A stretch of 64,000 nucleotides of DNA from an uncultured bacterium (lineage in GTDB: Bacteria > Patescibacteriota > JABMPQ01 > CAVVCK01), in contig CAVVCK010000001.1 of assembly GCA_963746775.1 (NCBI GenBank), positions 483,151 through 547,150 of the forward strand. The letters are read 5' to 3'. The notes beneath the pieces are model-generated. The model was not told where the DNA came from. It worked only from the letters and a program-made list of their open reading frames with translations, and did no database searches. Of the stretch, positions 5,750 to 60,685 are shown one piece after another; position 1 is the first letter of the stretch, and each line of letters begins with the position of its first letter. Made by a program: the position numbers and the translations under genes.

Positions 5750-6742
5750 TTAAACTATTCCAAATAGCCTTCCAATAAAAAATAGATAAAGCACTATATA
5801 CATCGCCCCTTCATAAATATGAATTCTTCTAGAAATACCGGAAATTACAAATAAGAATGTCGCCACAATCATCACTGGCACACCCAATGCAAAAGTTTGA
5901 TCATCCACCTGTAAAGTTTTAAATAATCCCGGCACACCTACTACAAATAAAATATTGAAAATATTTGAACCGAAGATTCCTCCCAAAGCCATTTCCGCTT
6001 TTTTATTCCAGGCAGCCTTAACCGATACTAATAATTCCGGTAAAGATGTGCCAACAGAAGCAGCAGCTAAGGCAATCACGCCCGTACTAATATTGAAAAT
6101 AACAGATAATTCAATCATAGCATCTACAAAATATTTAGAGCCTACCAGTAAGAAAGCTAGCCCGATAATTAAAATTATTATATCTTTAGCTGTAATTTTC
6201 GGTCTTTCCTTGATTTCTTGCTTAGACATAGTAACTTCGTGCTTTCTTCTCTCGGCTCTGCCCGGTAATTTTTCTTTTTTCTCATCTTCCTTATCTTCTT
6301 TATATAATATGGAATATAAAATATATATAACAAATAAAACAAGTAAAACTATAGATTCACCTAAAACTATTTTTTGGTCTAAAACAACTCCTAAAAAGAC
6401 GACTGTGCTGATAGCAATAAGGGGTATGTCCAAATCTATTAAATTTTTAGTAACCGCTAATTTCCCGCCAATTATAGAAGCAATACCAATAATAAGTAAT
6501 ATATTAGCAATATTAGATCCAATCACACCAGCTGTAACTATTTCTGTTTGATCTTTAAAAACTGCCACCATGGAAGAAACTACTTCAGGAAAAGATGTAC
6601 CTATACCAACTATAACTACACCTACTATAAAAGGAGGAAGACCAATAGCTAAGCCTATTTTTTCTGCACTTTTAAGCAACCAGTCAGCTCCTTTGACTAG
6701 AGCAGCTAAAGATACAATAAAGACCACAATCCAAAATATCAC
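5750..6742 (-). CDS. Na+/Ca2+ exchanger family (CaCA, YrbG-like) membrane protein
   Basis: Two alpha-repeat signatures (GTSFPEVVSSMVA and GTSLPELLVSVKAA) in a ~330-aa polytopic protein. Confidence 0.7.
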   Translation of the reverse strand: MIFWIVVFIVSLAALVKGADWLLKSAEKIGLAIGLPPFIVGVVIVGIGTSFPEVVSSMVAVFKDQTEIVTAGVIGSNIANILLIIGIASIIGGKLAVTKNLIDLDIPLIAISTVVFLGVVLDQKIVLGESIVLLVLFVIYILYSILYKEDKEDEKKEKLPGRAERRKHEVTMSKQEIKERPKITAKDIIILIIGLAFLLVGSKYFVDAMIELSVIFNISTGVIALAAASVGTSLPELLVSVKAAWNKKAEMALGGIFGSNIFNILFVVGVPGLFKTLQVDDQTFALGVPVMIVATFLFVISGISRRIHIYEGAMYIVLYLFFIGRLFGIV

Positions 6743-6902: not shown

Positions 6903-7319
6903 TTACTTATTAATTTCTTTAATATTATCTATTTCTTGTCGTACTTTTACTGTTTCCAGTTCTATTCCTGCCGCTTCTCTCTGCAATTTTTCTATAGCAA
7001 CACGGTGTTTCAGAATTTCTATTTCCATTCTTCTTTGCGCCATTTCTTGAGCCAATTGGCCTTCATCTTTTTTTATAGCCGCAGCGTAAGCTTCAGCGAT
7101 CAGATATCGCACAAAAGATTCTTCACTTTCCCTCTGCGCATTATATAAATCACTTTTTACCTTTTCTCGCATAGCTTCCAGCTCAGTCTCACCCCTAGGC
7201 AAACCCAACTGCCATAGCTTTTGAACATACAAAATCAATATTATCGCAGCAGCTGTAGCTGCCACCAAGAAAGCCACCAGAATAGCAATGACCAGAATTT
7301 CAATGATCATCTCCAACAT
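6903..7319 (-). CDS. membrane-anchored coiled-coil protein, hypothetical
   Basis: N-terminal TM helix followed by an A/E/K/R/Q-rich predicted coiled coil. Confidence 0.45.
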   Translation of the reverse strand: MLEMIIEILVIAILVAFLVAATAAAIILILYVQKLWQLGLPRGETELEAMREKVKSDLYNAQRESEESFVRYLIAEAYAAAIKKDEGQLAQEMAQRRMEIEILKHRVAIEKLQREAAGIELETVKVRQEIDNIKEINK

Positions 7320-9197: not shown

Positions 9198-9653
9198 CTA
9201 ATTATTAATTATTTGAAATATTGCTATCCCACAGGCCACGGAAACATTTAAAGATTCTTTCTGGCCTTGCATGGGAATTTCTATTATTCTATCGCACTTA
9301 TTAAGTACTCGGCGAGGCAATCCTTCAACTTCAGCTCCCAGAATTATAGCTATTGGATATTTTGGTTTAAATTTAGAATAATTTAAACTTTCTTTGTTCT
9401 GCTCTAGGGCTACAATTTGAAATCCTTCTCTTTTTAGTTTATCAACAAGTCTTCCTGTTTGTCTATATCCCTCCCAATCTACATAATTTTCAGCACCTAG
9501 GGCCACTTTAGATATTCTGGAATGCGGAGGAATAGGTGTTATTCCACATAAATATATTTTATTAATCCCAGCCCCATCAGCCGTTCTAAATATTGAACCT
9601 ACATTATATCTACTTCTAATATTATGTAAAATTAAAACTATCTTTTTTTTCAT
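9198..9653 (-). CDS. SpoU/TrmH-family RNA 2'-O-methyltransferase
   Basis: SpoU motifs (GSIFRTADGAG; ILGAEVEGL; IPMQGQKESLNVSVACGIAIFQI). Start set at the internal ATG (MKKKIVLIL) because the longer track ORF would overlap tRNA-Cys. Confidence 0.65.
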   Translation of the reverse strand: MKKKIVLILHNIRSRYNVGSIFRTADGAGINKIYLCGITPIPPHSRISKVALGAENYVDWEGYRQTGRLVDKLKREGFQIVALEQNKESLNYSKFKPKYPIAIILGAEVEGLPRRVLNKCDRIIEIPMQGQKESLNVSVACGIAIFQIINN

Positions 9654-10851: not shown

Positions 10852-11292
10852 CTACCATGCTTTTACCTTACAATATAAATTGCCAGAACAAAGATTATGA
10901 GAAAACCCAGCACAATAATCTTTACCCTCAATAATTTTCACCTCCTGAACATGAAAAATACTTATGACCACTGTAATAAGTGTAACTATAACACTGACAA
11001 TCGCTATTGTTATTGCCCATCTTGAACTCCTCCTAGCTTCCACAAGTTCTTCATATTCTATTAGTTTAAATGCACCACTAAAAGTTAAGTGAAAATTTTT
11101 TTCATTACTACTATCATCAAGCCTAAAAACCTCTTCTCCATTTCCTAATTCCATTTCACGACTAATAATATCCTTCTGTTTAGGAAATTCCTCTAATATT
11201 TCATGCTTCGTAAATTTTCCTTTTTTATTGGCCCACTTTAGTATTTCTGCATATATATTCCTACTCTTTTCAGATTCTATAGATATTTTCAT
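10852..11292 (-). CDS. hypothetical protein with C-terminal TM helix
   Basis: 146 aa. TM helix WAITIAIVSVIVTLITVVISIF near the C-terminus. Confidence 0.4.
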   Translation of the reverse strand: MKISIESEKSRNIYAEILKWANKKGKFTKHEILEEFPKQKDIISREMELGNGEEVFRLDDSSNEKNFHLTFSGAFKLIEYEELVEARRSSRWAITIAIVSVIVTLITVVISIFHVQEVKIIEGKDYCAGFSHNLCSGNLYCKVKAW

Positions 11293-11579
11293 AGAGTGTC
11301 ATTTAATTTGCATTAAACAATGTCTTATTCCTTAACCTATATTTATCCGTCGCTATCAAATAAAAAGACTTTGCAAACTTTTTATGCTCTCGCTTATTTT
11401 AAATAAATTTATACCGCCAATACATTTTCAAAAAACAAAACACAAATCATCGCTACTTAATCGAGAGATAAATTAAATTTTAAAACTATTGTAATGAACT
11501 CAACACCAAAAAAATAAAACCGCTTTCTTTAGCCAAAAAACCTTTAAAATTCATGGAAAGTTCGACCAAACTTCTCACG

Positions 11580-11654
11580 TGGTGCCGGGGGAGAGAATTG
11601 AACTCTCGACACAAGGATTTTCAGTCCTTTGCTCTACCACTGAGCTACCCCGGC
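11580..11654 (-). tRNA. tRNA-Phe (GAA), CCA encoded
   Basis: Reverse complement GCCGGGGTAGCTCAGTGGTAGAGCAAAGGACTGAAAATCCTTGTGTCGAGAGTTCAATTCTCTCCCCCGGCACCA folds canonically. Confidence 0.85.
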
Positions 11655-11758
11655 CAGTTAGAAGTTTTGGCAATTGACGTTTATACTATTGTTTCTAGTT
11701 TTACAACAATCAACGGTACAGGTTTTGATTACCAATACTTCTAACTGGCCACCGGCCC
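11654..11758. repeat. tRNA-5'-abutting hairpin element with 17-bp terminal inverted repeats, copy 2
   Basis: CCAGTTAGAAGTTTTGG ... CCAATACTTCTAACTGG is a perfect or near-perfect inversion. The left end overlaps the first base of tRNA-Phe. Confidence 0.65.
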
Positions 11759-11790
11759 TAAGTTAATATTATAATTTTTCTTTTCCCTTG

Positions 11791-11867
11791 GTGGGCGATC
11801 GAGGACTCGAACCTCGGACCTCGTCATTATCAGTGACGCGCTCTAACCACCTGAGCTAATCGCCCCC
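11791..11867 (-). tRNA. tRNA-Ile (GAT) in the 16S downstream spacer, CCA encoded
   Basis: Reverse complement GGGCGATTAGCTCAGGTGGTTAGAGCGCGTCACTGATAATGACGAGGTCCGAGGTTCGAGTCCTCGATCGCCCACCA. Confidence 0.8.
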
Positions 11868-12124: not shown

Positions 12125-13630
<1,506 letters not shown>

Positions 13631-13886
13631 AAAAATGATTTGAGAAAATAAATTCTCAAATTATAGAGATTGAGTCTTATGGTTTAATAAATTAAACCAG
13701 ACTCCGAGCTCTAAAAAAATTATAAAGCATGTTACATATCACCAAGTGATACATACATTATTGTTCCTATCGCTTTTCAATTGTTAATGTTCTTGAATCT
13801 CAGTACAAAAAACTACCTTAGATAACCTAAGATATTACAAACTTTTTATACTTAGTTTCAGTATTAATAATTTAATATACTAAATA

Positions 13887-30831: not shown

Positions 30832-31104
30832 ATGTATTATTTATATATACTTTTGTTAAAAAATAAGCAATTATACAAGGGATCAACTAGTGATTTAAAA
30901 CGAAGATTCAATGAACACAAAAACGGCAAAGTTAAATAAACTAAATACAGAAGACCTTTAAAATTAATACATTATGAAGCATATATATTAAAAAGCGATG
31001 CCGAAAGAAGAGAAAGGTTTTTAAAAACAACAGAAGGAAGAAGATTATTAAAACAACAAATAAAAGATATTCTAAATAAACATAGTAAACATACGCCCTC
31101 GTAG
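30832..31104 (+). pseudogene. GIY-YIG nuclease-family small protein gene interrupted by an in-frame TAA
   Basis: Translation MYYLYILLLKNKQLYKGSTSDLKRRFNEHKNGKVK-stop-TKYRRPLKLIHYEAYILKSDAERRERFLKTTEGRRLLKQQIKDILNKHSKH. GIY ... YIG-family core (YxGST ... RR ... EH ... G). The TAA at 30937 sits where the family has Tyr (TAY). The ORF's 3' end overlaps the first 10 nt of tRNA-Arg. Confidence 0.55.
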
Positions 31105-31166
31105 TTCAATGGACAGAACACCAGCCTTCTAAGCTGGTTATGTAGGTTCGATTCCTGCCGAGGGCA
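31095..31166 (+). tRNA. tRNA-Arg (TCT)
   Basis: GCCCTCGTAGTTCAATGGACAGAACACCAGCCTTCTAAGCTGGTTATGTAGGTTCGATTCCTGCCGAGGGCA folds canonically. Confidence 0.8.
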
Positions 31167-31266
31167 AGTTATTATGTTCTAGTTGTTGTAAATGTCAGAA
31201 CTGTTGTAATTGAAAAAATATTTAAAACATCTATAACAATTAGAATTGTTACAACATTTTATGCAG

Positions 31267-31339
31267 GGGCCTCTAGCTCATCTGGTAGAGCGCATCCATG
31301 GCATGGATGAGGTGAGGAGTTCGAGTCTCCTGAGGTCCA
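31267..31339 (+). tRNA. tRNA-Ala (GGC), G3-U70 present
   Basis: GGGCCTCTAGCTCATCTGGTAGAGCGCATCCATGGCATGGATGAGGTGAGGAGTTCGAGTCTCCTGAGGTCCA. Acceptor carries a G-U at 3:70. Confidence 0.85.
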
Positions 31340-31343
31340 TAGT

Positions 31344-31415
31344 GGTGACTATAGTTCAATGGTAGAACACTAGTCTGTGGCACTAGTTACGAGGGTTCGA
31401 TTCCCTCTAGTCACC
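31344..31415 (+). tRNA. tRNA-His (GTG) with encoded G-1
   Basis: GGTGACTATAGTTCAATGGTAGAACACTAGTCTGTGGCACTAGTTACGAGGGTTCGATTCCCTCTAGTCACC. The extra 5' G pairs with the discriminator C. Confidence 0.85.
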
Positions 31416-31464
31416 TTGGTGATATATAAAAATATTTTTTTTAAAGTAATACTTAATTCAAAAA

Positions 31465-31495
31465 TATAAAAGCCCATTATGGGTCTTTTTTATTT
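31465..31495 (+). terminator. intrinsic terminator after the tRNA-Arg/Ala/His cluster (AAAGCCCATTATGGGTCTTTTTT)
   Basis: Hairpin followed by a T-run. Confidence 0.5.
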
Positions 31496-31657
31496 ATTCT
31501 TTTAATGATTCTAAAAATACTAATAATTAAAAATAAGCAACCTCTAAAATGGGAAAAGGCGCCATTCATTGAACGTGTACGTTCTCCGAAATGACGCCTT
31601 GAGATGTGCAAATGAGCTTGGGTCGAGTTGACCCGGGATGGGAAAAGAACGGTAGGT

Positions 31658-32920
31658 CTAGAAAAGCTGGTCAAGGATGACTCCCAGTCGGTCGCGATTG
31701 ACCAAACCTTCCTTGACTAGGGTGTTAATGGAAGGAATTACCCTATCAGCCTTTTTTGACCGGCAGATCGGAGCGCCAGCAGTCTCCGGAAGAATAGGAA
31801 CAACTTCCATCTGTCCAAACCGCTGGTTGATCCCCTCGATATCCTCAAGCGACCAGGTGTGACTGGGCTTGCCGGTCATGGCGAACGCGTTAATAGCCCT
31901 GCAGATCATATGCATCATGCACTGTTCTGCCCAGCGTCCGTTACAACCGTCAACCCTCGAACCTGGAATGACCACTTGGCTAGTAGTGTGGCCGAAGCCA
32001 TTGAGGTTCCTCCCCTCGATTCCGAAGTTGATGATCGTCTCCAACACGTAGCTAGTGGCGAGTGGGATCCGCAGGAAGTCTTCAGCCCGGATGATCCGTT
32101 CGCCCGTGAGCATCCAGGTTAGGCGGAGCAGGCTGGGCTGGATCTGTCGAATAAAAGCGGAAACTGCTGGGTCGGGGTGAAAGGCAGCGATACTCTCCAA
32201 CCCAACTCGTGCGGCGTAGACTGCTTCGTTGCCGCGATCCACTTGACAGCCCAACACATGATTGTGCCGATGCGACGCTACCACTAGCGGGTAGGTCAAA
32301 AAACGCGCCCCATTATAGGAACGAACATCAATAAGCTCGGAGTCGTGCATCATAATGCATGCATCCTCGTAGATCGTGCCACGCTCCATCATCGCCTGAA
32401 CGATGGCCAAGCCAACCATGATGGGAATGCCCTTGCCCACAACATTTTGACGCTGAAGACTAAGAAGCTGGAAGAGTTCGGGACTGACGGATTGATCAAG
32501 AACGTGCTGTACATCGATGACCGGAACCTCCCAACGCCTGACCTCAACAACAGCTTCTTCACCAGAACGATCATTTAAAACAATAACGTTTTGGCGCGGA
32601 ATCTGGCAGTCGTTCAACAGGTAGTCCAAAACCTCCCGGGGCACGAATTCGGGCTCACCGCCCTGCTCGTGCATCGGGATCAGAACCACGATTTTGCCAC
32701 TTTGAAGTATATTGTCAACATCTTCTTTCGCCTGGTGGATTCCAACCTCACCAGGATCGTAGAGTCCCGCTTCCATTTCCCGGCAAAACTCGGAGGCAAT
32801 CTTCTCGTTGTCATTACAGAACAGCCGCAAAGCACGCTCTCTGTCCACGCCCCTCGTTCGTTCTTTAGCAGTTTCACCACCAGTCGCACTACCCAGTCCC
32901 ACAGTACCAAACCGTTCCAT
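31658..32920 (-). CDS. mannosyl-3-phosphoglycerate synthase-like (GT55-type) glycosyltransferase encoded in a high-GC island
   Basis: 420 aa. Remembered MpgS blocks: ERFG near the N-terminus; VVLIPMHEQ ... VIVLNDRSGEE (compare VVVPMKNE ... IILVSNSRRE); GKGIPIMVGLAIVQAM (compare GKAEGMVLALLLAAM); TGERIIRAED (compare TGNAGEHAMT). The canonical DAD motif is not obvious. GC is about 52% against a window average near 30%. SD AAGGAGAGG upstream. Confidence 0.5.
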   Translation of the reverse strand: MERFGTVGLGSATGGETAKERTRGVDRERALRLFCNDNEKIASEFCREMEAGLYDPGEVGIHQAKEDVDNILQSGKIVVLIPMHEQGGEPEFVPREVLDYLLNDCQIPRQNVIVLNDRSGEEAVVEVRRWEVPVIDVQHVLDQSVSPELFQLLSLQRQNVVGKGIPIMVGLAIVQAMMERGTIYEDACIMMHDSELIDVRSYNGARFLTYPLVVASHRHNHVLGCQVDRGNEAVYAARVGLESIAAFHPDPAVSAFIRQIQPSLLRLTWMLTGERIIRAEDFLRIPLATSYVLETIINFGIEGRNLNGFGHTTSQVVIPGSRVDGCNGRWAEQCMMHMICRAINAFAMTGKPSHTWSLEDIEGINQRFGQMEVVPILPETAGAPICRSKKADRVIPSINTLVKEGLVNRDRLGVILDQLF

Positions 32921-33031
32921 AGCCTCTCCTTGAGACCCATCGAGTCTCTCGTTCCCCCTTGGTTAATTAAAAAAGGTGCTTTCTGATTCAAAAAAGAAGG
33001 CAAATTTTACCTCCTTTTTCGAATCTAAAAG

Positions 33032-34228
33032 CTATGAAATTTTAAGGAAATTAAAGCTGGTCCTTGCTTGATATAGCATCTCCGCAGTTAGAAGATTCCA
33101 ACTGACAAATCTCGGTGCACATAAAGGTTTTCCAGAATCCGCATGGTAATTCTCGTGCATACCGCCTGTTTTTTTAATATCTTGCAAACATAAATTAGTA
33201 ATTTTTTTGGCTAACATTTTTGCTTCTTTCCTAAAACCATAATTTAACAAAATATGCAGGCAAAAATAATTAGCAATGGGCCAAATAGGTCCCTGCCAAT
33301 TAGAGCAAGGCTTAATGATAGCCTTGTTATTATAATCAGGATCATCATAGGCTAGCGTCCTTACGCCATATTTTGACCAAAGCTTTTTCGGATTTAACAT
33401 ATATTTTCTAATCATTTCTATCCCCTTCTCTTCTGGCAATAACTTTTCCCATAAGGGAATAAAATTAGAATAAGTATGCCTTTTAATTAATTTTCCATCT
33501 TTAGTATCCAAATTATAATAACTTTTATCATTCTCATCCCATAAATATTTATTGATATTTCTTTTTATTTTATGAGCTTTTTCTCTATATATTTTTTCTT
33601 TCTCGGATTTGCCTAAATTGCAAGCAATTAAGCTTAGACATTTATATTCACGATACAAGAAAGTATTAAGATCTGCACCAATAATGGTTTTTTTGGGGTA
33701 TGGCGCTACAGCTACATTATTATCTGCTCCACATTCCATTCCGTTATACCACATAGCCAGGTCATATTTTTTGCTCCACATATATCTTTCGCGGTAAGTA
33801 GCCGCTTTTTCTAATTTATCAAAATATTTCTCAATCCAAGTAAAATCTTCTAAATTTTTAGCGGCAAAATAAACTTGTTGTACTAAAAAAGGTTTTACAT
33901 GATATAGCCGCTTATCTCTGCCTTTGGGTGTAACTAATCCAGGGGTAAAGCCTGTTTTATGATTAACACAATTCAAATAATTTAAGGCACAGTTCTTCAT
34001 ATAAATAGCTTCCGAAGGAATCTCAGAGGCCAGAGCTACACCAATAAAAAAAGAATCCCAGTCCCACTGTTCCTGGTAAGGTCCGCAAGGGACGAGATAA
34101 TCATATTTTAGAGCACCCTTGGCCTTCTTTTTAACCTCTGATCTATACGAGAAAAAGTGTTTTTTAAGCTGTTCTTCTGTAGTCATAAAGTATTTTTTTC
34201 TAAATAATATTTTATCATACAGTATCAT
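33032..34228 (-). CDS. (alpha/alpha)6-barrel glycoside hydrolase, GH63-like (mannosyl-/glucosylglycerate hydrolase-like)
   Basis: About 399 aa. Motif YLVPCGPYQEQWDWDSFF and the overall length suggest a GH63/GH37-type catalytic barrel. Native AT-rich composition. Start is uncertain (ATG at 34228 or internal MTTEEQ). Confidence 0.4.
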   Translation of the reverse strand: MILYDKILFRKKYFMTTEEQLKKHFFSYRSEVKKKAKGALKYDYLVPCGPYQEQWDWDSFFIGVALASEIPSEAIYMKNCALNYLNCVNHKTGFTPGLVTPKGRDKRLYHVKPFLVQQVYFAAKNLEDFTWIEKYFDKLEKAATYRERYMWSKKYDLAMWYNGMECGADNNVAVAPYPKKTIIGADLNTFLYREYKCLSLIACNLGKSEKEKIYREKAHKIKRNINKYLWDENDKSYYNLDTKDGKLIKRHTYSNFIPLWEKLLPEEKGIEMIRKYMLNPKKLWSKYGVRTLAYDDPDYNNKAIIKPCSNWQGPIWPIANYFCLHILLNYGFRKEAKMLAKKITNLCLQDIKKTGGMHENYHADSGKPLCAPRFVSWNLLTAEMLYQARTSFNFLKIS

Positions 34229-34425: not shown

Positions 34426-35448
34426 CTATTTTTCTTGTTTCCCAATATACTCAACCAATTTCATCATATTAGAGGCATAACCCCATTCATTATCATACCA
34501 AGCAATAATTTTGATTAGTCTCTTATCTAAAACATCCGTGGAGAGGGCATCAACTGTAGAAGCCATAGCATTGCCTCTGTAATCAATCGAAACTAAAGGT
34601 AGATCACTAACAGCTAATACGCCTTTCATTTCTCCTCTTGCTGCTTCTCTAAAGGTTTTATTTAAACTTTCAATATCTGCATCTTTTTCAATTTCACATA
34701 CTAAGTCTACTACTGAGACAGTAATAGTAGGTACGCGCAAAGAAATGCCTTTCAATTTACCGGCCATTTCTGGAATTACTTTGGCTACTGCTTCACTGGC
34801 ACCAGTGGTGGTTGGAATGATAGATTCACAAGCAGCTCGGGATCTTCTTAAATCATCTTTCTTATGAGGCGCATCATGTAAATTTTGGTCATTAGTGTAA
34901 GAGTGAATTGTATTCATAAATCCGTGTTTTATGCCATAAGCTTTATGTAATACTTTACAGATAGGGGCTAAACAAGTAGTGGTGCAAGAAGCAGCTGATA
35001 TAATCTTATCTTTTTCTGGATCATAATCTTTTTCATTAATGCCAGCAATTATAGTCTTAATATTATCCCCTTTACCAGGAGCGGAAATTAATACTCTTTT
35101 AGCTCCTGCAGTCAGATGTTTATCGCAATCTTCATATTTTCTAAAAGCACCGGTAGCCTCGATTACTAAATCAACACCTAAATCTTTCCAAGGAAGTTCT
35201 GCCGGATCATCTATATGCAGCATTTTAATTCTCTTTCCATCAATAATAAAATCTTTATCATCAACTTTTATTTCTTTATCCCAAACACCATAAATTGAGT
35301 CATATTTAATCAAATGGGTATAAACATCAATGGAAGAGCGGCTATTGGCGGCTACTAAGTTAATATTAGGATTTTCTATTGCCTGCCTAAAGGCTGTTCG
35401 GCCAATTCTGCCTAGGCCATTGATAGCTACGTTTAATTGTTTAGACAT
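34426..35448 (-). CDS. gap: type I glyceraldehyde-3-phosphate dehydrogenase
   Basis: NGLGRIGR Rossmann motif. Active-site SCTTTCLAP. 340 aa. Confidence 0.9.
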   Translation of the reverse strand: MSKQLNVAINGLGRIGRTAFRQAIENPNINLVAANSRSSIDVYTHLIKYDSIYGVWDKEIKVDDKDFIIDGKRIKMLHIDDPAELPWKDLGVDLVIEATGAFRKYEDCDKHLTAGAKRVLISAPGKGDNIKTIIAGINEKDYDPEKDKIISAASCTTTCLAPICKVLHKAYGIKHGFMNTIHSYTNDQNLHDAPHKKDDLRRSRAACESIIPTTTGASEAVAKVIPEMAGKLKGISLRVPTITVSVVDLVCEIEKDADIESLNKTFREAARGEMKGVLAVSDLPLVSIDYRGNAMASTVDALSTDVLDKRLIKIIAWYDNEWGYASNMMKLVEYIGKQEK

Positions 35449-35523
35449 TTTTTTAAATTAAATAAAATATTTTCCCGACTTTAGTCGGAAATTATTATCC
35501 TGCTAAAGCAGGGTTAATAACTT

Positions 35524-36600
35524 TTAAACAATTTCTATTTCCTTACACAAATAAACATCCTGTACTGCATTAATAATCTCTACCCCTTCTTCCATTGGTC
35601 TTTGAAAAGCTTTGCGACCCAATATCAATCCACTGCCACCTGCCCTTTTATTAACTGTGGCTGTATAGATGGCATCATGTAAATCATTGCCGCCGCTTGA
35701 TCCGCCAGAATTAATCAAACCAATTCTGCCCATATAGCAATTGGCTATTTGATAACGACACAAATCAATAGGATGATCGCTGGCTAAATCTGTATACATT
35801 TTCTCATCGTATTTACCATATTTTTCAGTTTTATTCATATATTCATAGCCGCCGTTTAATTCCGGAAGTTTTTGTTTAATAATATCTGCTCCTATAGTTA
35901 CACCTAAATAATTTGCTTGTCCAGTCAGATCTGCAGAGGTGTGATAATTATGTTCATCATCGGCTTTAAAAGCATTATTACGCAAATAACACCAAAGAAT
36001 AGTAAACATACCCATTTCATGAGCTTCTGCAAAAGCTTTACTTACTTCCTGAATCTGCCTCTTGGATTCTTCTGAGCCAAAATAGATGGTAGCACCTACT
36101 CCTAGAGCTCCCATATTATGAGCTTCTTTGGGGGAAGTAAACATTATCTGGTCATAGGTGTTAGGATATCTTAAAATTTCATTATGATTAAGTTTAACAA
36201 TAAAAGGAATTTTATCAGCATATTTTTTAGACATCATGGCTAATATACCGTAAGTTGAAGCTACTCCATTACAACCAGCCTCAATAGCTAATTTAATTAT
36301 ATTTTCTGGATCAAAATAATCAGGATTTTTAGCAAAGCTTGCTCCAGCTGAATGCTCAACCCCCTGATCTACGGGTAAAATAGAATAGTAGCCAGTGCCA
36401 GAGAGTCTTCCGTGATCTCTTAATTTCTTTAAATTTTCTTTAACTTTATCGCTTCTATTAGATAAATTAAAAACATTATCAATATGATTTGGTCCTGGAA
36501 CATGCAAGCGTTCTTTTTTTATTTTTGGATCATTAAAATCTAATAATTTTTCGGAATCATTTTCTAAAATTTTTTGAATTGATGAAAAATCATAGGACAT
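35524..36600 (-). CDS. fbaB: class I fructose-bisphosphate aldolase (FbaB/DhnA type)
   Basis: Near-colinear with remembered E. coli FbaB: [50 protein letters not shown] ... KLNHNE ... [11 protein letters not shown] ... [10 protein letters not shown] ... [17 protein letters not shown]. Confidence 0.85.
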
Positions 36601-36737
36601 AATTTTGATATATTAAAATTTATATATTATTGAACACAAGTGATTACTAATTCCCAATTTCCAATAGGATGACAAATACTAAATTATTAATTTGACATTA
36701 GAAATTTTATTGGAGATCGGATATTAATTATTGGTAA

Positions 36738-37724
36738 TTAAATATTATAATGTCTTGTCTCAATATACCTAATAGTTTTTTCTTGCGCTCTCATACTCAT
36801 AGAAAAGGTCTTAGCACCATAAGGGGTAAAATCAACACCTCTTAAAAATGATCCGGTTGATACACCTGTAGCAATAAACATACAATCATTGCCTTGGACT
36901 AAATCATCCTGAGTCATTTTTTTATTTAAATCAGATACGCCCATTTTTATAGCTTTTTCTTTTAAACTATCGGTATCTTTGCCTTTTAATTCCCCAATAT
37001 CAAATACTAATCTGCCTTGCATTTCTCCACCTAAACATTTTATAGCAGCGGCTGTAATTACACCTTCTGGCGCTGCACCATAGCCTAGTAAAATATCAAT
37101 ATCAGAATCTTCCAAACAAGAGGCTACGCCGCCTGATACATCGCCATCTGATATTAAAGTAAGCCTTGCCCCTTCTTGGCGTACTTCTTCAATTAATTTA
37201 GCATTATAATCTCTCTCTAGCATTATTACCATTAAATCCCTAACATTCATACTCTTTGCTTGTGCGACTGCTTTTAGATTATCGGCTACTGATTTATCTA
37301 GATCTATCATACCTTTAGCTTCTGGTCCGACAGCGATTTTTTGCATATAGACATCTGGGGCGTGAAGCATAGTACCTTGTGGGGCAGCAGCCATAACGGC
37401 AATAGCATTAGGTCGGCCATAAGCGACACTATTAGTACACTCTAGTGGATCAACAGCAATATCTATTGCATCACCGCTGCCTTTGCCAACTTCCTCACCT
37501 ATAAATAGCATTGGAGCTTCGTCTCGCTCGCCTTCGCCAATTACAATTCTGCCTTTCATTTCCAGGTTGTTAAAATATTTTCTCATCTCTTCGGTAGCAG
37601 CACTATCAGCCGCATCTTTATCACCTCTGCCATAAAACCTAGCAGAAGCAATAGCTGCTGCCTCGGTTACTTTCACAAAATCTAGAGCTAAATTTTTATC
37701 CATTATTTTATTATTAAAAAACAT
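36738..37724 (-). CDS. glpX: class II fructose-1,6-bisphosphatase GlpX
   Basis: LALDFVKVTEAAAIASARFYGRGDKDAADSAA ... typical GlpX N-terminus and length. Alternative start at 37703 (MDKNLAL). Confidence 0.85.
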   Translation of the reverse strand: MFFNNKIMDKNLALDFVKVTEAAAIASARFYGRGDKDAADSAATEEMRKYFNNLEMKGRIVIGEGERDEAPMLFIGEEVGKGSGDAIDIAVDPLECTNSVAYGRPNAIAVMAAAPQGTMLHAPDVYMQKIAVGPEAKGMIDLDKSVADNLKAVAQAKSMNVRDLMVIMLERDYNAKLIEEVRQEGARLTLISDGDVSGGVASCLEDSDIDILLGYGAAPEGVITAAAIKCLGGEMQGRLVFDIGELKGKDTDSLKEKAIKMGVSDLNKKMTQDDLVQGNDCMFIATGVSTGSFLRGVDFTPYGAKTFSMSMRAQEKTIRYIETRHYNI

Positions 37725-37872
37725 TAAAACTTAAAAACAATAAAAACAAAATATTATAAATAGGCATTATTTCTTTGTATTTTGTTTTTATGTTCTAGTG
37801 CTTTATTGTTCTTGTGAATTCACATACCATCATACGATATTAAACGTTTTGGTCAATTATCTTTGTGGATAA

Positions 37873-38601
37873 TTATTTACTCGGCCATTCTTTCTTAGCT
37901 CGTTCGTAGGCCTGTGGTGTACCTATATCATACCATTCACCATCAAAATGATAACCGTGCAAACTTCCTTCCATAGCTAATTTGGGCAAAACATCTCTTT
38001 CAAATTTGGAATATTTTTTATTCTTAGGTACTAATTTTAAAACTTTAGGGTCAATGACATAAATACCAGCTGAAATAACCCTAGATAAATTTGGCTTTCT
38101 TTCAGGCTTTTCTAAAAATCCTAAGATTTTACTTCCTCTTAATTTTACTACTCCATAGCCTTCTGGATTTTGAACAGAAGTTAGGGCGAGGGTTACGGCA
38201 CTATTTTTCTCTTCATGAAAAGCTAGTAAATCTTTCAAATCAACATTAGCTAGTGTGTCTCCATAAAGCATTAGGAATGATTCATCGGATAAATATTTTC
38301 TAGCTTTATAGATAGCATTTCCAGTGCCTATTCTATCATTGCATTTAACATAAGTAATTTTTACTCCAAATTTTTCTCCATTTTTAAAATAATTTTTTAT
38401 GGCATTACCCTTGTAGCCTATTAATATAATAATATCTCTAATTCCATTTTCTTTTAATTGATTAATAATGTGCTCTAAGACTGGTTTTCCCTGGACTTTC
38501 AACATAGTTTTGGGTGCATCTATGGTTAGAGATTTAACCTTACTTCCTCTTGTACCAGCCAAAATATAGGCTTTTTTAATGCCAGAGCGTAATCCTTTCA
38601 T
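37873..38601 (-). CDS. sugar-1-phosphate nucleotidyltransferase (NTP_transferase domain; mannose-1-P guanylyltransferase/glucose-1-P thymidylyltransferase-like)
   Basis: N-terminal AGTRGSK ... loop, PKxML ... KP motif. Single-domain, 242 aa. Confidence 0.6.
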   Translation of the reverse strand: MKGLRSGIKKAYILAGTRGSKVKSLTIDAPKTMLKVQGKPVLEHIINQLKENGIRDIIILIGYKGNAIKNYFKNGEKFGVKITYVKCNDRIGTGNAIYKARKYLSDESFLMLYGDTLANVDLKDLLAFHEEKNSAVTLALTSVQNPEGYGVVKLRGSKILGFLEKPERKPNLSRVISAGIYVIDPKVLKLVPKNKKYSKFERDVLPKLAMEGSLHGYHFDGEWYDIGTPQAYERAKKEWPSK

Positions 38602-58541: not shown

Positions 58542-58750
58542 TTATCGGGTTTTGGTTTAAGTGGAAATTAGCCTATAGAAAGTAAATTTACATTATATAA
58601 TAGTAATGAAAACATTTTAGACTTTTTTATATAAAATTGATTTTATATTTGATAAATATAGAATATTGACGTAGAATAAAACAAAAGATATAATTATCTG
58701 CTTATTTTGAATTATAAAAAGTATTTTAATAACATCTAAAATCAAATTTC

Positions 58751-60685
58751 ATGAATATAACCATTCTCTCCAAAAGATTAAATATGCCCGTCCCAGAGCT
58801 TATGAAGAAAATTGCGAGCTTCGGCTTTAAATTACGCAATAATACTAAGAAAATAAGTGATAGAAAAGCCAAAGAGATTATTAAGAAAGTTGAGCGGGAG
58901 AGAAGAGAAGCTGCTAATAAAAAAGAAGAAGTATATGAAGTACCAGAGAAAATAGCTCTATCTTCTTCAGTGACAGTTAAAGAATTTGCTGAGAAGCTTA
59001 ATATGCCCGTAACCAAAGTTATTCCGGAACTGATGAAAAATGGCATTATGGCCACCATCAATGAAGAGATTGATTATGAAACAGCCGCCATTATAGCAGA
59101 GGAGATGGGTGTAAAGGTAGAAGAACACAGAGAAGAAAAAGATATTTTAAAAGAAGAAGGAGTTAGAAAGAAAATTTTAAAACAATTAGCAGGTGAGAAA
59201 GCAACAGATTTAAAAAGTAGACCTCCGGTTGTCTGCGTCTTGGGTCATGTTGATCATGGGAAAACAACCCTGCTTGATGCTATTCGAGAAACCAATATAG
59301 TTGAAGGTGAGTCAGGTGGTATTACTCAGCATATTGGTGCTTATCAAGCAAAGATTAAAGGTAAAAATATTACTTTCCTAGATACTCCAGGACACGAAGC
59401 GTTTAAGGCTATGCGTGAGCGAGGTGCTAAGGTAACTGATATCGCAATTTTGGTGGTAGCTGCTGATGATAGCGTTCAGCCTCAAACTGCTGAGGCTATA
59501 GCACATATCAAGAAAGCCAAGGTCCCGATGGTGGTAGCTATTAACAAAATAGATAAACCAGAGGCAGATGTTGAGAAAACCAAAAAACAATTGGCGGATC
59601 ACGATGTTCTAACTGAAGAATGGGGTGGAGATACTGTTTGTGTGGAAATATCCGCTAAACAAAAGATAAATCTAGATAAATTATTGGAATCAATATTACT
59701 TGTTTCTGAAATGGAAGAACTAAAAGCAAGTCCCGAAACTCGCGCTGTGGGAACTATTATTGAATCTAATATGGATGCTAATCAAGGACCAGTGGCGACA
59801 GTATTGGTACAAAACGGAACTTTGAAACTTAATGATCCGGTGACAGTTTTTGGCATTATAGGAACTATTAAATCAATGGAAAATTTTAAAGGTGAGAAGA
59901 TAGAGTATGCCGAGCCTTCTACGCCAGTTAGAATATTAGGCTTAGAAAAAGTTCCTGAAGTCGGAGATATTTTACAAGTAGAAGATAGTAGAGAGGAAGC
60001 TAGAAAAAAAATAGGCAGTTTTAAAAAAATAAAAAATATTTCTAAAAAATATAAAAATGATAAAAATAGCAAAGTAAAAACTTTAAACATTATCTTAACT
60101 GCTGATGTGCAAGGATCATTGGAAGCAATAATGTCTGAATTCAATAAAATTGAGATTGAGGGTGTTAACTTACAAATTGTGAATTTCAAAGTAGGAAAAA
60201 TTAGTGAGTCTGATGTAATGATGGCTTCATCTTCTAACGCTATGATTATTGGTTTTAATAATAGCATTACTTCAGTAGCTTCTAGAATGGCTGAAGATAG
60301 AAAGGTTGATGTTAAAATTTACAAAATAATTTATGAGATGCTGGATGAATTAAAAGCAAAGCTAGAGAGTATGGTAGAAATAGAACTAGAATTAGCTAAA
60401 ATAGGTAAATTGGAAGTATTGGCAATCTTTAGAACAGAAAAAGATAAAAGAATTATAGGGGGGAAAGTGGTTTCAGGTAAAATGAAAAGAGGAGTAGTAG
60501 CTAAAATAGTAAGAGATGACCAAGTGATTGGTGAAGGTAAATTATCTAATTTGCAATTAGGCAAAAAAGATACTGCCGAAGTTGATAGTGGAAAAGAATG
60601 CGGAATTACCTTTACTGGGCATGTTAAAATTAAAGAAGGAGACGTGTTGGAGGCTTATGAAGAGAGGGAAGTAAAACGTAAATAG
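58751..60685 (+). CDS. infB: translation initiation factor IF-2
   Basis: G-domain [31 protein letters not shown]. 644 aa. Confidence 0.9.

Follow-up and report, generated by a model that had tools for sequence, protein, structure and literature searches.

The stretch of DNA that we analysed, hereafter the window, is 64,000 nucleotides long and contains a gene of unusually high GC content that encodes a 420-amino-acid glycosyltransferase (GT). The gene follows one that encodes a hydrolase of family GH63 (GH) and lies near a cluster of three tRNA genes. The host is probably a Patescibacteria (CPR) genome. Identity of the 16S rRNA in the window to plasmid sequences is about 75%, and the lineage is very divergent. 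The features of the locus are given below, with related loci denoted by L numbers and alignments by A numbers.

31095..31416, plus strand: tRNA-Arg(TCT), tRNA-Ala(GGC) and tRNA-His(GTG), convergent with GT (ARAGORN, Rfam)
31472-31484: terminator hairpin of the tRNA cluster
31521..31522, no strand: inversion breakpoint on the GT side, where the first-pass annotation had placed the start of the island (alignments A5, A8)
31522..31600, minus strand: conserved 3' element, terminator-like, 3' flank of the variable cassette (alignments A5, A6)
31658..32920, minus strand: GT, 420-aa predicted retaining GT-A glycosyltransferase of an uncurated family, distant to GpgS and MpgS; GC 0.533, GC3 0.59
32923..32931, minus strand: Shine-Dalgarno sequence AAGGAGAGG, 2 bases upstream of the ATG
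32932..32948, minus strand: small 5'-UTR hairpin GAGAC-N7-GUCUC, immediately before the Shine-Dalgarno sequence (alignment A7)
32987..33023, minus strand: conserved 14-bp hairpin plus U-run, resembling a terminator of GH, 5' flank of the cassette (alignment A7)
33032..34186, minus strand: GH63 MGH1-like hydrolase, similar to mannosylglycerate and glucosylglycerate hydrolases (Pfam PF22422)
34426-35448, minus strand: GAPDH (Pfam, NCBIfam)
35524-36600, minus strand: class I FBP aldolase (Pfam, NCBIfam)
36738-37724, minus strand: GlpX FBPase (Pfam, NCBIfam)
37873-38601, minus strand: sugar-1-phosphate nucleotidyltransferase (Pfam, NCBIfam)
58663..58664, no strand: other inversion breakpoint (alignment A8; gene order against L001, L004 and L007)
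58751..60685, plus strand: IF2 (infB), ancestral downstream neighbour of GT (Pfam; synteny in L001, L004 and L007)

A GC-rich gene in an AT-rich window

The first-pass annotation described an abrupt high-GC island that holds a single gene of foreign-looking composition, and our comparison of GC content and codon usage with the flanking genes confirms this description. The window has a GC content of 0.322, whereas the GT gene reaches 0.533 (53%). Measured over 200 nucleotides at a time, GC rises from 0.28 at 31400-31599 to 0.51-0.585 over 31600-32900, and is down to 0.36 by 33000. The 54 open reading frames (ORFs) of at least 100 amino acids in the window have a mean GC3 of 0.234 (SD 0.068), among which the GT gene is the sole outlier (GC1/GC2/GC3 of 0.62/0.39/0.59, against a GC3 of 0.19-0.29 in its neighbours). 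Both its codon usage and its amino-acid usage are atypical relative to the other 53 ORFs, with G-ending and C-ending codons enriched alike. The only other GC island longer than 1 kb in the window is the 16S rRNA gene (12127-13636).

GT is the one credible gene inside the island, and the Shine-Dalgarno sequence, the tRNA-Arg/Ala/His cluster and its terminator are all present as first annotated. The Shine-Dalgarno core AAGGAG is kept in the window, L004 and L001, and is degenerate in L003 (AAGGGAG) and L007 (GAGGAG). The small hairpin next to it reads GAGGC/GCCUC in L004, a compensatory change, and GGGAC/GUUCC in L003 (alignment A7). Further upstream, the 14-bp hairpin starts nine nucleotides past the GH stop codon and consists in the window of twelve Watson-Crick and two G-U pairs; it is conserved together with its U-run in the window, L003, L004, L001 and L007 (alignment A7). 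On the other side of GT, the 3' element comprises a 17-bp hairpin (31558-31599), a U-run (31546-31557) and AGAGGTTGCT. This element is conserved in five loci despite GT proteins that are only 39-81% identical, and shows compensatory changes at three pairs (alignments A5, A6). No Rfam family matches positions 31522..31600.

It is barely conceivable that the island arose by chimeric assembly, or that it is a GC-rich element without coding function, for example a structured RNA, whose ORF is spurious. GC-rich DNA does hold long ORFs that arise by chance, and several of 60-131 amino acids are present in antisense. However, window positions 31286-33886, which include both island edges, recur unchanged in a Logan assembly made separately from run ERR11571143 (L006), protein-level homologues are found at E values of 1e-96 to 1e-227 with a dN/dS of 0.06, the AF2 model of GT has a pLDDT of 94, no credible Rfam match exists in the island at the gathering threshold or even at E<=10, and the GT mRNA has no surplus structure over synonymous-codon shuffles (z=-0.71). 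What the island contains is a single intact gene that looks expressed and is under purifying selection.

A glycosyltransferase and its GH63 partner

GT belongs to a family with 86 representatives among 1.84 billion proteins and no Pfam or NCBIfam model; the protein itself has no NCBIfam match. Judged from its sequence and predicted structure (pLDDT 94.3, pTM 0.92), it is a retaining GT-A enzyme whose nearest characterised relatives are the glucosyl- and mannosyl-3-phosphoglycerate synthases, GpgS and MpgS. A profile of the family detects GpgS at E 2.3e-7 and MpgS at 3e-6 and 1e-4. Members of GT81 show both detectable sequence homology and the closest fold, namely GpgS of M. tuberculosis (Rv1208) and M. 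hassiacum (4y6n, 7p5l) and MpgS of Rubrobacter xylanophilus (3f1y, 3o3p), which are 15-18% identical to GT. In contrast to these actinobacterial proteins, GT occurs in CPR hosts and exceeds them in length by about 100 residues, having an additional helical region at the N-terminus and an extension at the C-terminus. Identity to the GT55 MpgS of Thermus thermophilus (2wvk) and Pyrococcus horikoshii (2zu7) is 12-14%. The first-pass annotation had described GT as MpgS-like, with the block structure of the GT55 enzyme. GT has the MpgS fold and is distantly homologous to GpgS and MpgS, but no curated GT55 model recognises the protein, which falls short of the gathering score of PF09488 (Osmo_MPGsynth) and has no match to it at E<=0.1. 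Among 60 family members, a single one matches PF09488, weakly (E 0.003).

The GpgS report (PMC2581804) describes a retaining GT-A type enzyme with a motif Asp134-Ser-Asp136-Leu (DSDL) where the fourth core strand ends, an Asp134-Lys114-Glu232 ion-pair network, and a PLSGE loop. In GT, D193-S-E195-L comes right after model strand 188-191, and we accept DSEL as a variant of the Asp-x-Asp motif in which Glu replaces the second Asp of GpgS. D193, K163 (within GKG) and E294 match the ion-pair network, with K163 placed by its motif rather than by an explicit alignment. Profile alignment puts MLTGE on PLSGE and YVLE294 on GYGVE232. Thus GT has Thr where the GpgS loop has Ser; a mannose-using relative mentioned in the same paper (PMC2581804) carries Gly at this position (PLGGE). 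D193 is invariant in the 60 family members, K163 and E294 are each at least 90% conserved, and E195 is invariant in the nine closest sequences. In GpgS, His258 coordinates the metal, and Val186 and Thr187 contact the carboxylate of the acceptor. Judging by eye, we take R322 and D324 of QVVIPGSRVDG to be the possible equivalent of the Arg256/His258 loop of GpgS.

The GH gene product (33032-34186) matches PF22422 at 113.9 bits, where the cut-off is 27 (E 1.6e-32). Its score of 28.4 bits with the NCBIfam glucosylglycerate hydrolase equivalog NF047898 is far short of the cut-off of 550. The substrate site of the glucosylglycerate and mannosylglycerate hydrolases GgH and MgH contains Tyr36, Trp40, Trp42 and Asp43 (Y-x3-W-x-W-D; PMC6608630). 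These residues correspond to the YQEQWDWD segment of GH, in which Y37, W41, W43 and D44 are invariant (alignment A4).

Using GH as bait, we identified 32 distinct loci in which a GH63 gene adjoins a GT-family gene, 17 in the order GH-GT and 15 in the order GT'-GH. GTDB labels, which cover L008-L017, are mostly those of CPR candidate phyla. CPR bacteria carry the GH63-GT pair widely, and in many of them GT is a long-standing, unusually variable partner of the neighbouring sugar hydrolase. With 32 such loci, the pair is no surprise in reduced genomes, where the first-pass annotation had called solute-synthesis genes unexpected. Scans with GT patterns gave no relatives in GTDB genomes, JGI metagenomes or viral contigs, and their source alignments (A2, A3) were too diverse for pattern design. 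The clusters of L008 and L009 include a HAD Hydrolase_3 phosphatase and a PGM/PMM, and that of L010 an NTP-transferase, a ROK kinase and TrmB. A tblastn search with the HAD proteins of L008 and L009 found no phosphatase partner in the 64-kb window. The genes at 34426..38601 lie upstream of GH63-GT in the same orientation, and their order is the same in L001, L004 and L007.

GT and GH63 most likely act as a pair that makes and breaks down a small alpha-glycoside of the glucosyl- or mannosyl-glycerate type. The sugar donor would be an NDP-sugar from the nucleotidyltransferase of the cluster, and the neighbouring lower-glycolysis genes would provide the acceptor, 3-phosphoglycerate or an acid like it. 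The GT product would next be acted on by a phosphatase in a two-step pathway, and GH63 would hydrolyse the final product later. The library searched contains no paper that links glycosylglycerate-type metabolism with CPR bacteria. Alternatively, GT may be a GT-A transferase with another job, acting on a lipid, a cell-wall precursor, a protein or another small metabolite, so that the link to glycosylglycerates would be mere distant fold resemblance. We hold this to be possible but doubtful.

A conserved slot, an inversion and a variable gene

The first-pass annotation interpreted the island as a recent acquisition from a high-GC donor, inserted at a tRNA-adjacent hotspot of this genome. GT does resemble a classical tRNA-linked genomic island in its atypical GC and codon usage and in the tRNA genes nearby: it contrasts sharply with all 53 other ORFs in GC, GC3, codons and amino acids, and the tRNA cluster is 240 nucleotides away. 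However, relatives carry GT at the orthologous site. The gene order GAPDH-GH63-GT-IF2 is common to L001, L004 and L007, where IF2 is the visible downstream gene of GT, and GT directly follows GH in L003 and L005. In all five loci GT occupies the same slot and is GC-enriched amid AT-rich flanks. The homologues in AT-rich relatives have similarly high local GC, an outcome that the first-pass annotation had itself named as refuting its interpretation.

The proximity to the tRNA genes has a separate origin. We mapped a 27-kb inversion with breakpoints at 31521/31522 and 58663/58664 (alignments A5, A8; gene order), which is absent from the closest relative, L003. The sequence that is unbroken in relatives, ...GGTTGCTT..TTATT followed by GACGTAAAATAA..., is split in the window at 31521/31522, and the IF2 promoter-like region TTGACG-N17-TATAAT picks up again at 58663/58664. 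The former breakpoint is the abrupt jump in composition at the island start. The tRNA adjacency is secondary; the inversion put GT beside the tRNA genes, so they are not part of the cassette. ARAGORN found no tRNA on the short contigs L002, L003, L005, L018, L019 and L021. Integration through att repeats or an integrase was rejected, since the window holds no integrase ORF, and no att-like flanking repeats or duplicated tRNA end were found around GT. Moreover, silent sites are near saturation among the window, L003 and L004, and GC3 has not been lost. No donor has been sampled: among about 15 billion proteins, none of those encoded by GC-rich genomes exceeds 42% identity with the window allele. 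The proposal of a recent, one-off acquisition at a tRNA hotspot is already refuted in its main points, and we regard it as very improbable.

GT diverges far more than the genes around it. Between L001 and L007, identity is 83% for GH, 88% for GAPDH and 86% for IF2, but only 42% for GT, and the dN of GT is 0.63 versus 0.07-0.11 in the flanks (six to nine times higher). Between the window and L003, both dN and dS of GT are approximately doubled, and dN/dS is 0.06 compared with 0.07 for GH. The elevated dN, together with a dN/dS that is unchanged in the one pair where it is measurable, points to alleles older than their surroundings rather than to faster protein evolution. GT alleles are much older than the flanking genes. 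L001 and L007 are placed in the GT tree in a way that conflicts with the trees of GH and GAPDH; the GT and GH clades are otherwise broadly alike, with the window, L003 and L004 grouping together. Both cassette flanks are conserved at the nucleotide level. A GT of 231 amino acids in L004 appeared truncated, but is interrupted by a run of N in the scaffold and is not a pseudogene. Simple amelioration of one ancient transfer was rejected, as it can explain neither why GT proteins differ at 58% of amino acids when their flanks are 83-88% identical, nor the frequent silent AT-to-GC changes.

Proposed allele replacement and the upkeep of GC

The reading that we favour, at a probability of about one half, is that a glycosyl-(phospho)glycerate-type synthase is paired with its hydrolase and forms a GC-rich, recombining cassette flanked by conserved hairpins. 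On this reading, the old slot GH63-GT-IF2, between two conserved hairpin-bearing flanks, would have undergone repeated allele replacement via homologous recombination in those flanks. The fold, motifs, synteny, composition, divergence pattern and inversion are observed, whereas the substrate, the two-step pathway and the recombination mechanism are inferences. The replacing alleles would come from a GC-richer part of the same gene pool, and a GC-favouring bias tied to the recombination may add to the effect.

Variable genes are swapped in situ between conserved flanks in capsule and O-antigen glycosyltransferase loci and in restriction-modification cassettes. The GT locus shares with these systems conserved flanking genes and intergenic elements, alleles far older than the flanks, atypical GC and tree incongruence. 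In contrast, here a single cytoplasmic-looking enzyme gene is swapped for members of the same family, no diversifying-selection target is obvious, no donor is sampled, and GC enrichment is systematic rather than sporadic. GC3 is higher in GT than in GH in 15 of the 17 GH-GT loci (median difference +0.215) and in none of the 15 GT'-GH loci, and the excess spans genome backgrounds of 31-65% GC. In most lineages with the GH-GT order, the GT alleles surpass the host genome in GC. L021 has no such excess.

Some points weigh against allele replacement from a GC-rich source. No donor is sampled, and the closest relatives of GT all lie in AT-rich flanks. Recombination in flanks conserved at the nucleotide level implies donors that are closely related and would also be AT-rich, which fits poorly with a GC-rich source. 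To keep GT enriched in 15 of 17 lineages, alleles would have to flow in continually, and a force intrinsic to the gene fits equally well. The alternative is vertical inheritance since one ancient acquisition, with high GC actively maintained, a fast-evolving protein and no import of alleles; GC would be kept high by GC-biased gene conversion or by selection that acts on GC or codon content. The recurrent excess across lineages and backgrounds is consistent with this alternative, as are the broadly matching GT and GH clades of the window, L003 and L004 and the absence of a sampled donor. Silent substitution in GT also shows no AT bias: silent AT-to-GC changes were fixed about twice as often per site in GT as in GH (p=4e-6), with four-fold sites near saturation and a parsimony polarisation that saturation biases (in the GH control, the equilibrium GC3 comes out at 0.39, whereas the real values are 0.23-0.29).

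However, the six- to ninefold dN of L001 versus L007 with unchanged dN/dS in the measurable pair indicates older alleles, and the conflicting topology of those two loci also argues against strictly vertical descent. The GT mRNA is no more structured than its synonymous shuffles. Translational selection for C-ending codons was rejected, since G-ending and C-ending codons are both raised and the highly expressed neighbours are low in GC3 (0.24-0.25 in GAPDH and IF2). L021 indicates that the trait is not obligatory. We consider maintained GC under vertical inheritance a tentative explanation at best. The joint proposition that a gene-specific force has kept GC high over the long term in many Patescibacteria lineages, and that the glycoside of the GH63-GT pair is one not yet known from CPR, is somewhat less likely still. 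If true, the compositional island would be inherited and not acquired, and candidate forces include GC-biased conversion in a cassette where recombination is frequent, and selection that acts directly on GC or codon content.

A GC island beside tRNA genes suggests a recent insertion, a textbook-looking inference that is overturned here by synteny, a mapped inversion and substitution analysis. A gene that is GC-rich in 15 of 17 lineages and diverges several-fold faster than its flanks under normal purifying selection offers a well-defined natural case in which to ask how bacteria come to keep their local base composition, through recombination-linked bias or through an influx of foreign alleles. 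The tight pairing of this uncurated family, kin to GpgS and MpgS, with GH63 in CPR bacteria suggests that organisms regarded as biosynthetically minimal have a solute or reserve metabolism of the glycosylglycerate type.

Composition and chromosomal slot of the GC-rich gene

The glycosyltransferase gene (GT; ORF 31658..32920, minus strand, 420 aa) has a GC content of 53.3%, against 32.2% for the window. In 200-nt windows GC rises from 0.28 at 31400-31599 to 0.51-0.585 over GT and falls to 0.36 by 33000. Its GC3 of 0.59 is the sole outlier among 54 window ORFs of at least 100 aa (mean 0.234, SD 0.068), and the 16S rRNA gene is the only other GC island longer than 1 kb in the window. The excess is present at every codon position (GC1/2/3 of 0.62/0.39/0.59), with both G-ending and C-ending codons raised, and amino-acid usage also carries it, FYMINK residues making up 0.23 of the protein versus 0.30-0.39 in its neighbours. 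The high-GC island of the first-pass annotation is thus real, and the tRNA-Arg/Ala/His cluster with its terminator and the AAGGAGAGG Shine-Dalgarno of GT lie where it had placed them. Sequence from run ERR11571143, assembled independently in Logan, is continuous across both island edges and base-for-base identical to window positions 31286-33886; an assembly chimera is therefore very unlikely.

The order GAPDH, GH, GT, IF2, RbfA, where GH is the adjoining GH63 hydrolase gene, is common to three relatives' loci (L001, L004 and L007). In two others, L003 and L005, GH and then GT lie on short contigs. All close homologues of GT occupy this same slot. The first-pass annotation had proposed recent acquisition; in each of these loci GT is GC-enriched within AT-rich flanks, an outcome that the annotation had itself named as refuting its proposal.

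GC content of GT and of its flanks in relatives' loci
L001: GT 0.44, flank 0.32
L003: GT 0.53, flank 0.33
L004: GT 0.52, flank 0.35
L007: GT 0.42, flank 0.31

The L004 gene contains a run of N (5800-5812) that shifts the frame, so that the database product P0004 is merely 231 aa; it is otherwise intact.

In the window, the stretch at 58.7-63.2 kb carries IF2 (infB, 58751..60685, plus strand), RbfA, DHH and CdaA, which are encoded on the strand opposite to GT and adjoin RecF-like and DciA genes. Reversing about 31522-58664 (27.1 kb) recovers the gene order of the relatives. The junction can be placed at single-nucleotide resolution: the sequence ...GGTTGCTT..TTATT|GACGTAAAATAA..., unbroken in the relatives, is split in the window between the 3' flank of GT and the region upstream of IF2. 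The inversion is absent from L001, L004 and L007 and from the closest relative, L003. The abrupt jump at 31520 is therefore an inversion breakpoint, and GT became a neighbour of the tRNAs secondarily. Neither flanking direct repeats nor an integrase were found at the GT island, and the suggested insertion into a tRNA hotspot gives way to a tRNA neighbour brought by inversion.

The breakpoints fall just upstream of the TTGACG -35-like hexamer within the promoter-like site of IF2 and upstream of the RecF-like gene. The GC skew changes sign near 31.5 kb, coinciding with the inversion and with convergent transcription. The tRNA-Ala (31267-31339) has anticodon GGC, making it an isoacceptor that is unusual in a reduced, AT-rich genome. 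The 16S rRNA gene (12127-13636, minus strand) is followed by tRNA-Ile and tRNA-Phe at 11580-11865, and its best matches in a plasmid collection are about 75% identical. There is no 23S rRNA gene within the window, and the rRNA genes appear unlinked.

The GT protein family and its GH63 partner

As a single query, the GT protein had no match in Pfam, NCBIfam or PDB sequences. It is rare, with 5 matching clusters among 5.8 billion sequences and a family of 86 representatives (E<=1e-3) among 1.84 billion. GT carries the hallmarks of retaining GT-A enzymes set out for M. tuberculosis GpgS in PMC2581804, and they are conserved. D193-S-E195-L directly follows the fourth core strand, where GpgS has D134-S-D136-L; K163 is the lysine of the GKG motif; and MLTGE aligns with PLSGE of GpgS, E294 aligning with Glu232. 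However, GT is 12-18% identical to GT55 and GT81 enzymes, has about 135 additional residues, and belongs to neither family by any curated model. GT represents a separate, uncurated family within the GpgS/MpgS superfamily. The earlier "MpgS-like" holds for fold and superfamily, not for membership of GT55.

GT lies immediately downstream of GH (33032-34186, minus strand), an MGH1-like hydrolase (PF22422, E 1.6e-32) that retains Y-x3-W-x-W-D; PMC6608630 lists this motif with the residues that bind substrate and are strictly conserved in glucosylglycerate and mannosylglycerate hydrolases. Genes for GAPDH, class I FBP aldolase, GlpX and a sugar-1-phosphate nucleotidyltransferase lie upstream on the same strand. 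With GH as bait, we found a GT-family gene adjoining GH in 32 distinct loci, drawn from GTDB genomes and from metagenomes. Organism labels exist for the GTDB records alone (L008-L017), metagenome contigs having none; these are mostly CPR candidate phyla (Kerfeldbacteria, Buchananbacteria, Gottesmanbacteria, Paceibacterota), and three bear the label 'uncultured Gammaproteobacteria', which we judge doubtful. For L009 this label may be wrong, as the labelled relatives nearest to its GH are CPR. In two more distant clusters GT is followed by an intervening gene without known function and then a HAD Hydrolase_3 phosphatase, with a phosphogluco/mannomutase upstream; in another, the genes flanking the pair encode a nucleotidyltransferase, a ROK kinase and a TrmB sugar regulator.

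We propose that GT would join an NDP-sugar to a phosphorylated acid acceptor (both predicted in kind) to form a phospho-glycoside, which a phosphatase, presumably encoded in the genome, would convert to the glycoside for later hydrolysis by GH. No phosphatase homologue was found within the 64-kb window. Gene context and motifs support this two-step scheme, with GH as the putative later hydrolase, through the GH63 motif, the 32-locus pairing, and the nearby phosphatase, mutase, nucleotidyltransferase, ROK and TrmB genes.

GC alternates between adjacent genes in L008 (1-9205) and L009 (1-13149): it is about 0.43-0.50 in GH, PGM, BtpA and PfkB, and about 0.60-0.67 in GT, in the HAD phosphatase and in two unknown proteins, one of about 285 aa and one of about 388 aa. 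The GC-rich set contains likely pathway partners of GT. In a second arrangement a GT-family member lies upstream of GH (L014, L025-L031, L034, L037, L040, L043, L045, L047-L049). These members are more distant in the family (HMM score 92-235), some are fused to 500-770 aa proteins, their composition is native, and their identity is nearly uncorrelated with that of GH (Spearman 0.09).

Divergence between conserved hairpins

L001 and L007 share 83% identity in GH, 88% in GAPDH and 86% in IF2, versus 42% in GT, with dN of 0.63 for GT versus 0.07-0.11 for the other three. GH and GAPDH place these two loci as sisters, whereas by GT, L001 is closer to the window clade (48%) than L007 (41%). The intergenic elements on either side of GT show nucleotide-level conservation across all five loci.

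Features around GT
After the GH stop, 5' flank of GT: 14-bp hairpin, conserved in five loci
31522-31600, minus strand, 3' flank of GT: 17-bp hairpin and U-run after the GT stop, 75-80 nt, non-coding
32932-32948, minus strand: small hairpin GAGAC-N7-GUCUC abutting the GT Shine-Dalgarno

The 3' element (L001 about 11285-11355, L003 about 2890-2965, L004 about 7040-7115, L007 about 9262-9335) shows stronger conservation than the GT protein. Its hairpin has three compensatory pairs, and the U-run is followed by an invariant GGTTGCT. The element resembles a terminator, yet its loop sequence is conserved too; it had no Rfam match. The small hairpin, with a compensatory change to GAGGC/GCCUC in L004, could modulate initiation of GT translation.

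In window versus L003, the one pair with measurable dS, both dN and dS of GT are about twice those of GH. Selection on GT is not relaxed, because its dN/dS (0.06) matches that of GH (0.07). The GT alleles are older than their flanks, or faster-mutating.

Persistence and origin of the high GC

In genome backgrounds that range from 31% to 65% GC, GT is GC-richer than the adjoining GH in 15 of the 17 loci where it lies downstream (median GC3 difference +0.215, Wilcoxon p 8e-5). Where the more distant member lies upstream, the difference is positive in 0 of 15 (median -0.076; Mann-Whitney p 6e-6 between arrangements). Four-fold sites of GT in the window, L003 and L004 are near saturation (identity 0.33-0.42), and GC3 is still 0.52-0.59 in all three. 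Polarised silent AT>GC changes occur at 0.63 per site in GT versus 0.32 in GH (p 4e-6). These rates imply an equilibrium GC3 of about 0.53 for GT and about 0.39 for GH; the GH control reveals that saturation pulls parsimony towards 0.5, so that the GT-GH contrast alone is to be trusted. The GC of GT is not decaying.

We favour repeated replacement of the coding cassette, with homologous recombination taking place in the conserved flanks and with alleles that presumably diverged in members of the same gene pool that are GC-richer. Among lineages with GH and GT, some are GC-rich (L018-L020, L008, L009). However, sampling has yielded no donor allele, and nucleotide-conserved flanks imply close donors that are themselves AT-rich. 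A gene-specific force keeping GC high, such as recombination-tied GC-biased conversion or selection, remains as an alternative, and cassette replacement, which we prefer, may be combined with it. One ancient transfer with slow amelioration fails to account for the frequent silent AT>GC changes and for GT divergence several-fold above that of the flanks. Neither specific mRNA structure nor translational selection survived testing as a cause, and a single recent transfer is excluded.

The island and the superfamily call of the first-pass annotation therefore stand, and its evolutionary specifics are wrong, the slot being old and the tRNA neighbour a product of the inversion. The island is more interesting than a routine one on other grounds: lasting high GC and hypervariability between conserved hairpins are testable phenomena.
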